Part shown: piece by piece, positions 26,021 through 34,817 of the stretch | Layout: each line of letters begins with the position of its first letter | How positions within the stretch are numbered: the first letter of the stretch is position 1 | Assembly: GCF_022347785.1 (NCBI RefSeq) | Contig: NZ_JAKRGA010000005.1 | Coordinates: forward strand, 163,519 to 227,518 | From: Psychrobium sp. MM17-31 | GTDB lineage: Bacteria; Pseudomonadota; Gammaproteobacteria; Enterobacterales; Psychrobiaceae | Direction: 5' to 3' | DNA: 64,000 bases | Made by a program: the position numbers and the translations under genes | The notes under the pieces: model-generated | Databases searched by the model: none | Seen by the model: only the letters and a program-made list of their open reading frames with translations | What the model was told of the DNA's origin: nothing

Positions 26021-26467
26021 TTATTGGTTTCCGTTTATGCGGATTCGTTCAACATTGGCGTAAGTTCTTACAGATGGCTTATCCGATAATACAAATTCAA
26101 TTGCCACGTAATTATTACGAAGCTTTTTTGCAGGTTTTGTATAGACCCATCTCTGAACCCCCAATACTGCGCTGGCGTCAAAAAGCTCATCTAGATCAGA
26201 ACCTTCAACTTGAATATCCGACACATTGCCATCTTTTTCGATGCTAAAACTCAGCAATACCGCCCCTTCAAGCTTATTTTTCACAGCATACTGCGGGTAA
26301 TTTGGTAATGCCCTTTTAACCACAGATACCTCGTTAGGATCAGTAGCAGCCTGCGCACTTTGCAAAGTCACCGAACTCAGAAAAAGTGCCGTCAATGTTG
26401 AAAACGCGATAGCTATCGATTTGAAACTGCTAGTAAATTTAATTAACTGCAAACTCATGATTTTCAT
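26021..26467 (-). CDS. Periplasmic TonB C-terminal-domain protein
   Basis: The 148-aa ORF has a signal peptide (AQA cleavage-like) and a TonB_C-like core (GAVLLSFSIEKDGNVSDIQVEGS). Confidence 0.5.
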   Translation of the reverse strand: MKIMSLQLIKFTSSFKSIAIAFSTLTALFLSSVTLQSAQAATDPNEVSVVKRALPNYPQYAVKNKLEGAVLLSFSIEKDGNVSDIQVEGSDLDELFDASAVLGVQRWVYTKPAKKLRNNYVAIEFVLSDKPSVRTYANVERIRINGNQ

Positions 26468-26478
26468 TCCAACTATAA

Positions 26479-26513
26479 ATTACAAGTGTAATCGAAATAA
26501 TTACACTTGTAAT
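26479..26513. repeat. Perfect 14-bp inverted repeat ATTACAAGTGTAAT-N7-ATTACACTTGTAAT
   Basis: Read directly from the sequence. It sits between the stop of 26535..27374 and the start of the TonB_C gene on the minus strand. It could be an operator or an intra-operon hairpin. Confidence 0.6.
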
Positions 26514-26534
26514 CCAAGGAGTCAAATGCGGCGT

Positions 26535-27374
26535 TCAACCATACGGAGATTTCTTTAGAATTTTTGGCTCCCCAGCTAACGTTGCCTCTAAACGATAACT
26601 CACTAGCCCTTTTCCAGTTGCTTTAATTTTTATTATTCCAGAGAACTCAACGTGCTCATTATATCCGTCGTCTGTGCTAGACATCATGTCGGCAACTCCA
26701 TCAACGAAAACTTCATATTTTGTTAGTGTTTTTATCTGTTTGAATTCCACACCATCGCACCAATAATCTGCAGTTAATGATTCAGTTCCCAAGTAAGCAC
26801 CAATAAACCAAGAGAAATCGGCAGTAAAAAGATCACTATTTTGGGTGAGTATAAATTGCCCTAATGACTTAGCTAAACTAACCTCATTGCATCTCAAATT
26901 TTTCTTAAGCAACCTTTTATTAGTAAACTTCTTTTGAAAACTACGAGAGCACAACAAATGTAACTTGGCGCTATCAGTGGTTAACCAGAACTCGGTTACT
27001 TGTTGATTTTTTAGAAACAGCTCAAGGCCAAGAACTTTCGATTCATACTCACTAGCATTATTCCCTTGGCACATGAGTTTTACGCTCGGAGCTAATGAAT
27101 CAATATCATCTTCCTTCAATCCAATTAGACTTCGTTCATTCAAATAAACGAGTGAAGTACTCACCTTAAATCCAGACACACGAAACTGATAAAAGTTATC
27201 AAAAACAATAATTAATGAACTATCGTTGTAATGCCATTGCTCGTCGCAAAATTCATCAATTTTCCCATCTTGATTTTCAATCAGGTCTGGCTCTCCCATA
27301 ATCTGAGCAACTTCACGGCGTAGCATGCCATATTGAACTTCACCAATTCCTGTTTCAAAATCTAACTTCATCAA
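26535..27374 (-). CDS. Hypothetical protein (279 aa), distal member of the RtcR operon
   Basis: It has no recognisable motif. It overlaps the upstream gene by 4 nt. Confidence 0.45.
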   Translation of the reverse strand: MMKLDFETGIGEVQYGMLRREVAQIMGEPDLIENQDGKIDEFCDEQWHYNDSSLIIVFDNFYQFRVSGFKVSTSLVYLNERSLIGLKEDDIDSLAPSVKLMCQGNNASEYESKVLGLELFLKNQQVTEFWLTTDSAKLHLLCSRSFQKKFTNKRLLKKNLRCNEVSLAKSLGQFILTQNSDLFTADFSWFIGAYLGTESLTADYWCDGVEFKQIKTLTKYEVFVDGVADMMSSTDDGYNEHVEFSGIIKIKATGKGLVSYRLEATLAGEPKILKKSPYG

Positions 27375-28309
27375 AAAATAGTCTCTCCTGCTAACTTTTT
27401 CTGGGCAAACTGCCCACGCTCTCTCACCGATGGTGCTGAGTCACCTACTAACTTGGTGATAAAAACTTGAGCTTCGTTTCCTAAAATATCGAGCTCGCGG
27501 ATCACTGTTTGCGCGATAACCCGACGGACAATACTCGATTTATCCTCTAGTCCCAGATGCAATAACTCAATTAGCGGTGTTTTCACTGAGATATCACGCG
27601 ACTCATAACAAGGCTCAACAATAATATTGCGATAATAATCTTTACTCACAATTAGATTAGAGCCAGAGCGCCAACGCACTTTTCGCTCTAGTAAGCAGCG
27701 ATAAGCCATAGCCCGTAGCGAAGGTACAACCGCAGACTGTGCTATTGCTAACAGCGAGTCGTCAATTGCAGTCCGCGCCATCAACTGACTCAAAATAAGA
27801 GTCTGCGGGCCACTAGTCGCGGTCGTTAAACGCTCAACAATCATAGGTAAAAACCTAACATCAGCAGCTATGTCACGGAGCAAGTTACGATCTTCATCTT
27901 CTATTCTTTGCCATGAACTCCAATGATTTAACGCATAAAACAGCGCTTCAACGACCTCTTGTGGCCGAGAACTTTCAACAACAGTAGTAATTACCTTTCT
28001 TGTCGCACAGCGTACTTGCGGTACCCAATCGTTAAGGCGGCGCAGTAATACCACCAAAAAGAATGCATTAGGTGCACCGCTATCCAAAGCCAAGATCGAC
28101 TTTTCACGTTGATAGCCACTCCATGAACACAAATTTAACCAATCTTTTTCAACCGACTCGCGACGCCAAAACTTCCAACTTGCAGCTGACTGGAGCGCAC
28201 TATCATTATCTACTTGATAACGTAGTTCACGCTCCCAATGATCGATATTATTCAGTGGTCGAGAGCCGTAAGTTGTTATGACATCACTGAGTACCCTAAC
28301 TTCACTCAT
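27371..28309 (-). CDS. Hypothetical alpha-helical repeat (HEAT/ARM-like) protein
   Basis: The 312-aa ORF is Leu/Ala-rich and amphipathic with repeat-like periodicity. It has 8-nt and 4-nt overlaps with its neighbours. Confidence 0.4.
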   Translation of the reverse strand: MSEVRVLSDVITTYGSRPLNNIDHWERELRYQVDNDSALQSAASWKFWRRESVEKDWLNLCSWSGYQREKSILALDSGAPNAFFLVVLLRRLNDWVPQVRCATRKVITTVVESSRPQEVVEALFYALNHWSSWQRIEDEDRNLLRDIAADVRFLPMIVERLTTATSGPQTLILSQLMARTAIDDSLLAIAQSAVVPSLRAMAYRCLLERKVRWRSGSNLIVSKDYYRNIIVEPCYESRDISVKTPLIELLHLGLEDKSSIVRRVIAQTVIRELDILGNEAQVFITKLVGDSAPSVRERGQFAQKKLAGETIF

Positions 28310-33046: not shown

Positions 33047-33062
33047 ATCAAGTGATGTGCCA
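33047..33062 (-). promoter_or_regulatory. Candidate sigma54 (-24/-12) promoter reading leftward into the tRNA-like elements and the rtc operon
   Basis: The minus strand reads TTGGCAC-ATCAC-TTGAT. TGGCAC is a perfect -24 element. The -12 element reads TTGA rather than TTGC. It is correctly placed relative to divergent rtcR. Confidence 0.35.
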
Positions 33063-33179
33063 ACCACATTTCAAATGTCAAAAAATCTTGTAACCAGTTG
33101 ATAATTAGATAAATAAAATATTTAAAGGCATTCATCTGCAAATTTAGATTGCACACAAAACACCATTAAAATATCCTTT

Positions 33180-33208
33180 TGGATACAATTTATTTAAAAT
33201 GGATACAA
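33180..33208 (+). promoter_or_regulatory. Direct repeat TGGATACAA x2 (20-bp periodicity) immediately upstream of the rtcR start
   Basis: Copies lie at 33180-33188 and 33200-33208. The spacing puts both sites on the same helix face. Confidence 0.3.
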
Positions 33209-33212
33209 CGGA

Positions 33213-34817
33213 ATGAATAAGAAGACGGTTGTCGTAAGCTTAATTGGAACGCAACTCGATTACGTCGGCAAAGGTAGTGCGCGCTGGTCGCGCTGGCGTC
33301 CGAATGTCAGTTTATGTAGTCAGGAAGACTTGATTGTCGACGAACTGCATCTTATTCACGACAATCGGAGTAGCCGCTTGGCTAACAATGTTGCGGTCGA
33401 TATTGAATCGGTATCGCCAGAAACGACCACCAGCCTGCATAACGTGCGATTTGAAGATCCGTGGGACTTCGAAGAGGTTTACGCCAAACTCTACGACTGG
33501 TGTCATCAACAAACTTTTGATACCGACCACAACGATTACCTGTTTCACATTACTACGGGTACTCACGTGGTACAGATCTGTAGTTATTTACTAACAGAGA
33601 GCCGCCATTTTCCGGGACGCTTAATTCAAACCTCTCCCGATCACCACAATCCGAATAGATCGATTGGCCGCACTCATATTATCGATTTAGATCTATCGAA
33701 GTATGATCAAATCGCCAGCCGATTCGACATTGAACATCAAACTGGCAAAGATTTCCTAAAAGGTGGTATTGCTACAAAAAACAAAGCTTTCAATGAGTTA
33801 ATCAGCCAAGTTGAGAAAGTTGCCATTCGTTCGACGGCACCAATATTACTCACGGGCCCAACAGGCGCCGGTAAGAGTCAGCTAGCAACGCGTATCTTTC
33901 AGCTCAAAAAAATGCGTGAATTGGTTTCAGGTTCCTTGGTTTCAGTAAACTGTGCCACTCTAAAGGGCGAAAATGCGATGGCGGCGTTATTCGGGCATAC
34001 CAAAGGCGCGTTTACCGGCGCGCAAAAAGCTCGCGACGGATTCTTATTAAGTGCCAACAACGGCGTACTGTTTCTAGATGAAATCGGCGAACTAGGCCTC
34101 GAAGAGCAAGCGATGCTGTTACACGCCATTGAAAACAAGAGTTTTTATCCGGTGGGTAGCGACGTGGCGGTGACTAGTAATTTCCAGCTGATTGCTGGTA
34201 CTAATCGCCAACTAAAACAAGAAATCGCCGCAGGTAAATTTCGCGAAGATTTATTAGCGCGGATTAACCTATGGACTTATCAGCTGCCAGCATTGCGCGA
34301 GCGCAAAGAAGATATTCCCGCTAACATCGATTACGAAATCGATTTATACGCCCAAACCAATGGCCAACGCGTCCAATTTAACAAAGAAGCACAGCAGCGT
34401 TTTCTCAAGTTCGCCCAGTCATCAGAAGCGTTGTGGACAGGCAACTTCCGCGATCTCAGTTCAGCTATTACTCGCATGTGTACGCTAGCCGATTCATCGC
34501 GTATCACCATCGATGATGTTAACGCCGAAATAGCGCGCTTAAGCCAAGCATGGCAACCTTCTGAAGTATCTAACAATAATGATATTTTGCTGAACTATTT
34601 CAATTCCGAACAAATCGCCGCTCTTGATAGTTTCGACGCTAACCAGCTAGCGTTCGTGCTACAACGCTGCCAAGACCACAATTCGATGGCCTCAGCTGGG
34701 CGAGAGCTATTTAACGTTAGTCGTACCAGCAAGGTGCAAGTTAATGATTCGAGTCGATTACAAAAATACCTGGCTAAGTTTGGCTTGAAGTGGAAAGATA
34801 TAGATGCGCGAAGATAG
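33213..34817 (+). CDS. rtcR: Sigma54-dependent transcriptional activator RtcR (CARF-AAA+-HTH)
   Basis: The 534-aa ORF is collinear with E. coli RtcR. It has N-terminal VVSLIGTQLDYVGKGSARWSRWRP, Walker A (GPTGAGKS), the GAFTGA sigma54-contact loop and a C-terminal HTH. Confidence 0.95.
   Translation: MNKKTVVVSLIGTQLDYVGKGSARWSRWRPNVSLCSQEDLIVDELHLIHDNRSSRLANNVAVDIESVSPETTTSLHNVRFEDPWDFEEVYAKLYDWCHQQTFDTDHNDYLFHITTGTHVVQICSYLLTESRHFPGRLIQTSPDHHNPNRSIGRTHIIDLDLSKYDQIASRFDIEHQTGKDFLKGGIATKNKAFNELISQVEKVAIRSTAPILLTGPTGAGKSQLATRIFQLKKMRELVSGSLVSVNCATLKGENAMAALFGHTKGAFTGAQKARDGFLLSANNGVLFLDEIGELGLEEQAMLLHAIENKSFYPVGSDVAVTSNFQLIAGTNRQLKQEIAAGKFREDLLARINLWTYQLPALRERKEDIPANIDYEIDLYAQTNGQRVQFNKEAQQRFLKFAQSSEALWTGNFRDLSSAITRMCTLADSSRITIDDVNAEIARLSQAWQPSEVSNNNDILLNYFNSEQIAALDSFDANQLAFVLQRCQDHNSMASAGRELFNVSRTSKVQVNDSSRLQKYLAKFGLKWKDIDARR

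Follow-up and report, generated by a model that had tools for sequence, protein, structure and literature searches.

Does the RNA-repair operon of Psychrobium sp. MM17-31 represent a Rtc system that has escaped description, or is it a known system that has taken on additional genes? The operon lies in a 64-kb stretch of the genome of this isolate (the window, in which all coordinates below are given), where the map of open reading frames (ORFs) places six co-directional minus-strand genes divergent from rtcR. An earlier note on this DNA held that the configuration is not a described Rtc system. For the core this is wrong: RtcR, its promoter, the band 7-associated tRNAs (b7a-tRNAs), the SPFH protein, RtcB, RtcA and RlaP constitute a known, computationally defined system, and reports exist of RlaP with RtcR-controlled rtcB and rtcA (PMC12776372), of the SPFH protein PaFlo8 (PMC13086221) and of the Band-7/tRNA-like pairing (10.1101/312249). 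Only the two genes at the 3' end of the operon, encoding a HEAT-repeat protein and a protein of 279 residues, appear to be undescribed. The most economical account is of a known system whose 3' end gathers accessory genes from a mobile pool, and we consider it probable that the locus encodes an RtcB repair system of the Band-7/b7a-tRNA class, under RtcR/sigma-54 control, with its 3' end extended by two lineage-variable, non-enzymatic genes.

The six-gene RNA-repair operon is real, and its gene content, family assignments, overlaps, promoter motif, tRNA-like modules and structured leader are direct observations. The regulatory gene rtcR (33213–34817, plus strand) encodes a CARF domain, a sigma-54 AAA+ activator domain and a lid/helix-turn-helix region; the product passes the NCBIfam equivalog NF038308 (780.7 bits, cut-off 650) and matches PF06956 (268 bits) and PF00158, with GAFTGA at residue 265. 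The CARF domain of RtcR mediates its activation by pieces of tRNA that bear a 2',3'-cyclic phosphate at the end. On the minus strand, the SPFH/Band-7 gene (31421–32581, 386 residues; PF01145, 99 bits) stands ahead of rtcB (30180–31406), which encodes the 3'-phosphate/2',3'-cyclic-phosphate RNA ligase. RtcB joins cyclic-phosphate or 3'-phosphate ends to 5'-OH ends; the window copy matches PF01139 from end to end (424.5 bits), terminates in VVCVKG and is 85–87% identical to the copies in Fluctibacter and Pseudoalteromonas loci. The product of rtcA (29135–30169, minus strand) is the RNA 3'-terminal phosphate cyclase (NCBIfam equivalog NF003246, 406.9 bits, cut-off 352), which cyclises 3'- and 2'-phosphate ends. 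In each of these assignments, down to the GAFTGA loop, the RtcB C-terminus and the place of the SPFH gene, the earlier note was right.

It was right also that the operon reaches past rtcBA, the distal genes being tightly coupled to it by overlapping stop and start codons. Downstream of rtcA on the same strand lie rlaP (28302–29138, 278 residues), the accessory HEAT-repeat alpha-solenoid gene (27371–28309, 312 residues) and the accessory gene for the 279-residue two-domain protein (26535–27374). The proposed overlaps of 4, 8 and 4 nt were all found in the sequence: ATGA joins rtcA to rlaP, ATGAGTGA joins rlaP to the HEAT gene, and TTGA joins the HEAT gene to the last gene, the final overlap being 4 nt with a TTG start and 1 nt if the next ATG is used. 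Since the ORFs overlap, there is no space for a terminator between rtcA and the 279-residue protein gene. The end of the SPFH gene is 14 nt from the start of rtcB, and terminator-like sites in the operon (8 against 6.9 ± 3.0 expected) are in no excess over chance. The G+C content is 0.49 in rtcB/rtcA and 0.38 in the tail, the lower value being consistent with later acquisition.

The nucleotidyltransferase of the operon is, by its sequence matches, RlaP, the RNA ligase-associated Pol-beta nucleotidyltransferase. It aligns with positions 4–248 of the 249 in PF10127 (297.1 bits, cut-off 23) and with phrog_14344 (257 bits), and it carries the motif GS-X10-DYD at residue 49, in keeping with the pol-beta-type GS-X10-DxD enzyme noted previously; a search of the PDB gave no sequence match. 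The family was named by Burroughs and Aravind for its RNA-ligase linkage (PMC12776372). In Pseudomonas fluorescens and P. aeruginosa, rlaP lies between rtcB and rtcA under RtcR (PMC12776372, a 2025 preprint), and RlaP, as shown for PfRlaP and PaRlaP only, adds one or two nucleoside monophosphates to the 3'-OH of damaged RNA, an addition that restores aminoacylation of over-trimmed tRNA after ligation (PMC12776372). The earlier guess that this enzyme rebuilds RNA 3' ends agrees with this published biochemistry. The products of RlaP end in a 3'-OH and cannot be ligated by RtcB, which the RlaP authors present as an open problem (PMC12776372); the missing step may therefore reasonably be sought among the accessory genes that accompany rlaP.

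The 595-nt spacer between rtcR and the SPFH gene has an RNA content that was previously overlooked. In order along the operon strand, it contains a sigma-54-type motif, a hairpin block, two tRNA-like modules, an orphan T-arm and a domain of about 130 nt. The motif, TGGCACATCACTTGA (TGGCAC-N5-TTGAT; 33048–33062, minus strand), is the sole match in the 64-kb window, where 0.27 is expected. TGGCAC-N5 stands at an equivalent point of the leader in loci from Psychrobium, Pseudoalteromonas, Vibrio and Pleionea, with a –12 element that reads TTGA or TTGT across loci where the consensus is TTGC. Its presumed activator, RtcR, responds to cleaved tRNA (PMC7790460). The conserved 5' leader block (32959–33021, minus strand) consists of the hairpin GUGAUUCAAAAAUCAC followed by GGUGCRCU...GCGUAUGCC; it is near-invariant in six loci from four genera, its stems being those predicted by RNAalifold.

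Both tRNA-like modules are of the b7a-tRNA type and lie on the minus strand. Module 1 (32887–32958; Rfam tRNA, 46.3 bits) has a non-canonical anticodon loop and is called 'Leu tag' by ARAGORN; its stems covary between loci and its anticodon loop is not conserved. Module 2 (32812–32890; Rfam tRNA, 55.3 bits) has the anticodon AUU and is called 'Asn att' in the window, the orthologous modules of three related loci (L002, L023 and L081) having tta or ttt. Overall, the D- and T-arms of tRNA are kept and the anticodon loops vary by species, att, tta and tca being among the variants. Module 2 lacks a CCA end and abuts module 1; because CCA ends are missing and the two abut one another, we regard both modules as mimics rather than decoders. 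Downstream is an orphan T-arm, GTGGGTTCGATACCCAC (32769–32785, minus strand), the remnant of a third module. This remnant is absent from the sister Psychrobium metagenome-assembled genome (MAG; L001), and three modules are present in the close relatives L084 and L088–L090. Such modules were found in every related Rtc locus examined, and the same leader architecture is seen in the Psychrobium MAG, Fluctibacter corallii, two Pseudoalteromonas and Vibrio coralliilyticus. In 2016 Burroughs and Aravind reportedly described SPFH/Band-7 modules with a cognate novel tRNA-like molecule. Judged by sequence, the modules of the window match the "band 7-associated tRNA" that they predicted (Burroughs & Aravind, 2016).

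The structured 3' leader domain of about 130 nt (32614–32743, minus strand) is situated between the last tRNA-like module and the ribosome-binding site of the SPFH gene; it is closed by UUAGUAAG/CUUACUAA and has an invariant core, GCAAGCNGGANGCUCCC. Its predicted fold comprises 42 pairs, with 90.7% of cells paired as against 77.8% in shuffled alignments. There are 23 compensatory pairs compared with 13.7 ± 2.1 after shuffling; none of 500 shuffles scored as high, and slid controls gave 6–16. A covariance model built from nine loci scores 105 bits at the window locus and 58.6 bits at L093, which was not used in training. The loci with the domain are the window, L001, L002, L014, L023, L081, L084, L088–L091 and L093. 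The model found no match in more distant SPFH loci, and the idea that the domain is general to all SPFH loci was rejected, as matches occur only where the SPFH protein is at least about 60% identical. The domain has no match in Rfam. Its boundary also fixes the translation start: since the conserved RNA stem ends at 32617, we place the start of the SPFH gene at the ATG at 32581, preceded by AAGGAA and as assumed previously. The alternative, longer ORF from 32617 would start within the conserved stem.

The SPFH protein had been imagined as a scaffold at the membrane, for which we find no support, as no segment passes as a transmembrane helix (the maximum 19-residue Kyte–Doolittle hydropathy is 1.59). 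The C-terminal half, residues 196–371, matches the cage-forming structures of stomatin, QmcA and HflK. Together, these two features of the sequence point to an oligomeric platform in the cytosol and not to an anchor in the membrane. The linkage of this protein to tRNA was followed in a metagenome scan of 80 SPFH-anchored loci, of which the 70 with at least 450 nt upstream were used for counting. A same-strand tRNA or tRNA-like gene lies no more than 700 nt upstream of the SPFH gene in 67 of the 70, so that the pairing is close to universal. In the close clade, with SPFH at least 60% identical, two or three tRNA mimics follow a putative RtcR promoter.

More distant SPFH homologues lie directly downstream of same-strand arrays of 15–23 tRNA genes of ordinary appearance, frequently close to RtcB, RlaP or a CCA-adding enzyme (L095, L116, L123, L125, L135, L138, L140, L149, L164 and L167), and thus link tRNA arrays to the Band-7 repair system. 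Across 71 loci, the SPFH-proximal modules show a bias for U as the last anticodon letter, found in 45 of the 63 scorable ones as against 81 of 250 upstream array tRNAs. CAU, GAU, UUU, AAU and GUU are the commonest proximal anticodons, and eight further proximal modules have non-standard anticodon loops.

The two tail proteins gave confident, non-enzymatic structure models. That of the HEAT protein is an alpha-solenoid of paired helices with the signature LxDxxxxVRxxA, which bears out the helical-repeat reading of the 312-residue protein; its structure matches are generic solenoid scaffolds. The family, with 192 matches in Gamma- and Betaproteobacteria, has members of about 337 residues with an invariant RRLNDWVPQVR. 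Neighbourhoods were examined for the best 80 genome loci, the V. coralliilyticus locus being added by a separate look-up. Rtc context was found in only six of the 80, and in one more RlaP lies 2.5 kb upstream. The HEAT gene directly follows rlaP in Psychrobium, Fluctibacter, two Pseudoalteromonas and V. coralliilyticus, and these copies form one divergent clade. The cassette-type clade is well conserved (55–69% identity) and supplies a second juxtaposition: in Pleionea, with the order rtcB–rtcA–tRNA-like–SPFH–exonuclease–HEAT, a HEAT gene of this type follows an RNase T-type exonuclease. A HEAT gene thus stands directly behind a 3'-end-modifying enzyme in two separate operon layouts.

Outside Rtc loci, many HEAT genes belong to long arrays of genes in one direction. 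Five loci have an IntI-type integrase within 10 kb, short intergenic repeats are present in about 27 of 83, and the 105 nearest neighbours span 80 Pfam families, with GNAT acetyltransferases at the top. A conserved partner outside Rtc loci was sought by clustering of the five neighbours on either side in 79 loci and by the Pfam tally of the 105 neighbours; none emerged. Nor was enrichment of immunity genes seen, SMI1_KNR4 accounting for two of the 105. We conclude that the HEAT family is largely mobile cassette-type cargo. The window gene itself is not an integron cassette, as there are no flanking attC sites; the overlaps of 8 and 4 nt with its neighbours leave no room for them. The HEAT proteins of F. 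corallii (L002) and V. coralliilyticus (L081), whose hosts belong to different orders, are 89% identical, and the V. coralliilyticus operon is without rtcA. The identity between the two proteins suggests recent horizontal transfer of the operon or its tail between these lineages.

According to its structure model, the 279-residue protein combines two inhibitor-type folds: a BLIP-like N-terminal domain and, after a helical linker, a C-terminal cystatin/NTF2-like sheet resembling the folds of latexin, cystatin and NTF2. Neither a signal peptide nor a catalytic signature is present, and the protein has no match in Pfam, NCBIfam, PADLOC or PHROGs. Its sequence is 100% identical to that of a Psychrobium sp. 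MM17-31 protein. Word searching revealed three close relatives and an exhaustive HMMER search 68, consisting of full-length relatives of 25–37% identity together with families that match only the N- or the C-terminal half; a pure orphan status is rejected by these full-length and single-domain relatives. The sole signals from the relatives, to BamE/DUF7738, were sub-threshold or borderline; no Imm family was seen, and no toxin gene is adjacent to them in the loci examined. A relative of 37% identity, P0124, closes a larger RtcR operon, that of L084, which encodes Band_7, RtcB, RtcA, a split CCA/polyA polymerase, RlaP, a 155-residue protein, a SpoU methylase and P0124; this operon tail recurs in L089. 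L084 (Logan SRR28780250, 1–16837) is a very large RNA-repair cluster, in which genes for RtcB, two small ORFs, PrfH, RtcB2, Macro, KptA (2'-phosphotransferase), NADAR and NAPRTase are convergent on the operon.

Comparison within the close clade reveals a fixed head and a changeable tail. The head comprises RtcR, the promoter, the tRNA mimics, the leader domain, SPFH, RtcB, usually RtcA, RlaP and sometimes a CCA-adding enzyme. The tails with HEAT contain it alone or with the 279-residue protein; those without it contain the 155-residue protein, this protein with SpoU and a relative of the 279-residue protein, or SpoU with such a relative. The 3' end of the operon can be seen as a variable slot in which HEAT, the BLIP-like protein, a CCA-adding enzyme, a SpoU methylase and an RNase T-like exonuclease have been collected. 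A PADLOC search for known components of anti-phage defence identified nothing for any accessory gene or neighbour.

From these elements a course of events can be proposed. A single transcript of about 6.5 kb would start near 33035, at the TGGCAC-N5-TTGA promoter, and its leader of about 440 nt would be processed to release the tRNA-like RNAs. These would load on the cytosolic SPFH oligomer, which would serve as a platform for the repair enzymes, as in the Burroughs–Aravind hypothesis. The HEAT solenoid, translationally coupled to RlaP, might act as a binding adaptor for the 3'-end-processing step, and the 279-residue protein, with its two inhibitor-type folds, might bind and block a nuclease or toxin. 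Both tail genes would be later additions from a mobile, cassette-type gene pool.

A number of observations weigh against this account. Co-transcription of the genes and their dependence on RtcR are what we infer from the sequence, and the –12 element of the window promoter reads TTGA where the consensus has TTGC. No partner or ligand has been identified for either tail protein. In about 74 of the best 80 HEAT loci no Rtc gene is found within 10 kb, nor do these loci have a common neighbour, and none of the 80 SPFH-anchored metagenome loci contains a HEAT gene; because most of the family lies outside Rtc loci and because it is missing from these 80, the system can do without HEAT, which functions elsewhere as well. 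Between Rtc loci, HEAT identity is 38–56% as against 85–87% for RtcB, a difference which suggests that HEAT is either fast-evolving or not strictly co-inherited. Several relatives of the 279-residue protein occur in unrelated or cassette-like, non-Rtc contexts. The concern raised in the earlier note, that the distal genes might be conserved only outside Rtc contexts, is thus justified for most HEAT loci but not for the clade that has been kept with the operon in four genera; for the 279-residue family it holds for some relatives, while others end RtcR operons.

How, then, should the tail be understood? It could consist of unrelated passengers, cassette cargo that is lodged 3'-terminally in a strongly inducible operon and has no part in RNA repair. 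The variable co-directional arrays in which most HEAT genes are found, with their integrases (five loci), intergenic repeats (about 27 of 83) and 80 Pfam families among 105 neighbours, are what would be expected of such cargo, as are the scarcity of 279-residue relatives, some of them in unrelated contexts, and the lower G+C content of the tail. We nevertheless think this rather unlikely, as the Rtc-linked HEAT copies form a clade of their own, directly after RlaP in four genera, where the codons overlap or lie close together; Pleionea offers a second and independent juxtaposition; distant relatives of the 279-residue protein (37% identity) end RtcR operons of different composition; and the overlapping ORFs of the window leave no possibility of attC-like flanks. 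We are similarly doubtful that both tail proteins act in the manner of immunity proteins and inhibit RNA-cleaving toxins, for example colicin, contact-dependent inhibition or type VI secretion RNases or anticodon nucleases, in which case the operon would both disarm the attacker and mend the damage. An arms race would be consistent with how fast the Rtc-linked HEAT clade has diverged, but the cassette-type clade, at 55–69% identity, is unlike typical immunity proteins. One 279-residue relative, P0125, has Ank, SseB and DUF-type genes as companions in its array, a Halomonas HEAT gene with RlaP upstream is beside Imm70 and SUKH-1 immunity genes, and two further HEAT neighbours are SMI1_KNR4; however, immunity families are not enriched among HEAT neighbours (2/105), no cognate toxin gene is adjacent in any locus, PADLOC and PHROGs gave no match for either protein, and the HEAT structure matches are generic scaffolds.

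A third idea starts from Ro60, itself a HEAT-repeat toroid (PMC3854526): the HEAT protein would be a Ro60-like RNA-binding ring in a cryptic Ro/Y-RNA system like that of Salmonella rsr-yrlBA-rtcBA. The leader does contain a sub-threshold YrlA match (31.2 bits), but this is far below the gathering score of 69, leaves the Ro-binding stem unmatched and is an artefact in which the T-arm of module 1 is followed by the D-arm of module 2. As a Pfam search of the operon proteins gave no TROVE or vWA signal, and as HEAT is absent from most loci that have tRNA-like RNAs, the idea is largely refuted and we hold it very improbable. It is also possible, though in our view unlikely, that HEAT and the BLIP/cystatin-like protein are dedicated, unrecognised components of the Band-7/b7a-tRNA system and that the 440-nt leader is a multi-part RNA precursor. 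On that joint reading HEAT may, for example, be an adaptor for RlaP or the exonuclease, and the 279-residue protein may be an RtcR-induced inhibitor of an RNA-cleaving toxin; if the latter were true, a single operon would couple neutralisation of the attacker to repair of the damage. The new leader domain of about 130 nt may control SPFH translation or assemble a repair particle. Overall, a Band-7/b7a-tRNA-class system with a 3' end extended from a mobile pool is the reading that we prefer.

The downstream limit of the operon is marked by a perfect 14-bp inverted repeat with a 7-nt loop (26479–26513), described earlier and confirmed here. The 86-nt segment that holds it (26460–26545) folds with –25.5 kcal/mol, z = –4.6 relative to shuffled controls. 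A sigma-70-like promoter (TTGACT-17-AATTAT, extended TG; 26525–26497) shares part of its sequence with the palindrome. Beyond lies the TonB_C gene (26021–26467, minus strand), which the earlier note placed after this repeat. The spacer is 67 bp in the window and about 660 bp in the sister Psychrobium MAG; with this long spacer and a promoter of its own, TonB_C is probably a separate transcription unit, outside the operon.

An RtcB2–PrfH module (22943–24726, plus strand) is located 1.3 kb beyond TonB_C. The stop codon of its RtcB2-type ligase gene (NF007153, 554 bits) overlaps the start of the release factor H gene (TIGR03072, 252 bits). The pairing of Rtc with PrfH–RtcB2 recurs in genome loci of Psychrobium (L001), P. 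neustonica (L014) and V. coralliilyticus (L081) and in the assemblies L084, L091, L097 and L103. After prfH come a proteasome-subunit-like (Ntn hydrolase) gene (25042–25623, plus strand; PF00227, 29 bits) and, apparently coupled to it, a short gene resembling low-molecular-weight phosphatases (25619–25957, plus strand; PF01451, 30 bits; CX5R). The phosphatase-like gene adjoins prfH also in L001, L014 and L091, and L023, where prfH was not detected, has a homologue some 0.8 kb away from an RNA-ligase/AAA_33 pair; the phosphatase-like gene may be an unrecognised accessory of the PrfH–RtcB2 module. Together, this module and the Rtc operon form an RNA-repair cluster of 12 kb that stands between an AAA_15/AAA_21 (AbiEii/OLD-like ABC-type) ATPase gene immediately to its left (21861–22625, minus strand) and a tRNA-Met gene. 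The latter is found just past the 3' end of rtcR in the window (35387–35463, plus strand; 67.6 bits) and in L014 (1662–1738; 68.8 bits), and at the same place in L001 there is a weak tRNA match (3457–3530; 33.6 bits). This may mark the edge of an island or be one more linkage to tRNA; the window flanks that were examined showed no integrase.

The prediction of a Band-7/b7a-tRNA branch of RNA repair dates back to 2016, and the main value of the window locus is as a clean test case for this hypothesis, together with the observations on the leader RNA and the variable tail. It is compact and cleanly delimited, with an identifiable promoter, two tRNA mimics, a covarying leader and the full enzyme set of RtcB, RtcA and RlaP; with all of these in one place, the scaffold-plus-RNA hypothesis becomes directly testable.

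Comparison with established systems places the locus more precisely. With rtcR/rtcBA of Escherichia coli it shares orthologous RtcR, RtcB and RtcA, the divergent layout and, by prediction, sigma-54 dependence; to our knowledge, the E. coli locus lacks an SPFH gene, a tRNA-like leader, RlaP and the tail genes. Salmonella rsr-yrlBA-rtcBA is likewise an RtcR/sigma-54 operon with tRNA-mimicking non-coding RNAs and a presumed scaffold ahead of rtcB. The scaffold is Ro60/TROVE there and SPFH in the window, where the RNAs are complete cloverleaf mimics and not YrlA. The trn operon of Anabaena is a long tRNA array co-regulated with rtcB (PMC8421152), recalling the arrays of 15–23 genes that precede distant SPFH homologues; it holds a full tRNA set whereas the window has two non-decoding mimics, and SPFH linkage is unmentioned in PMC8421152. 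The RtcB2–PrfH ribosome-repair module, which protects against colicin E3, is present in the window as a separate unit with its own ligase paralogue and release factor. The rtc locus of Pseudomonas is closer, with RtcR control, RlaP accompanying RtcB and RtcA, and an embedded SPFH gene, PaFlo8 in P. aeruginosa (PMC12776372; PMC13086221, 2026). The order is rtcB–rlaP–rtcA there and rtcB–rtcA–rlaP in the window, and no HEAT or 279-residue protein gene is reported for it.

Closest are the Band-7/b7a-tRNA/RtcB systems. The bioRxiv preprint 10.1101/312249 credits Burroughs and Aravind (2016) with the Band-7 protein and cognate tRNA-like RNA beside RtcB and describes the Band-7-associated RNA as never validated experimentally. 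The window shares with these systems the Band-7 gene beside rtcB, the tRNA-like RNA directly upstream and RlaP in the operon. Compared with these systems as they are summarised in that preprint, it adds two tandem modules with the remnant of a third, the covarying 130-nt domain and, as its tail, the HEAT solenoid together with the BLIP/cystatin-like protein.

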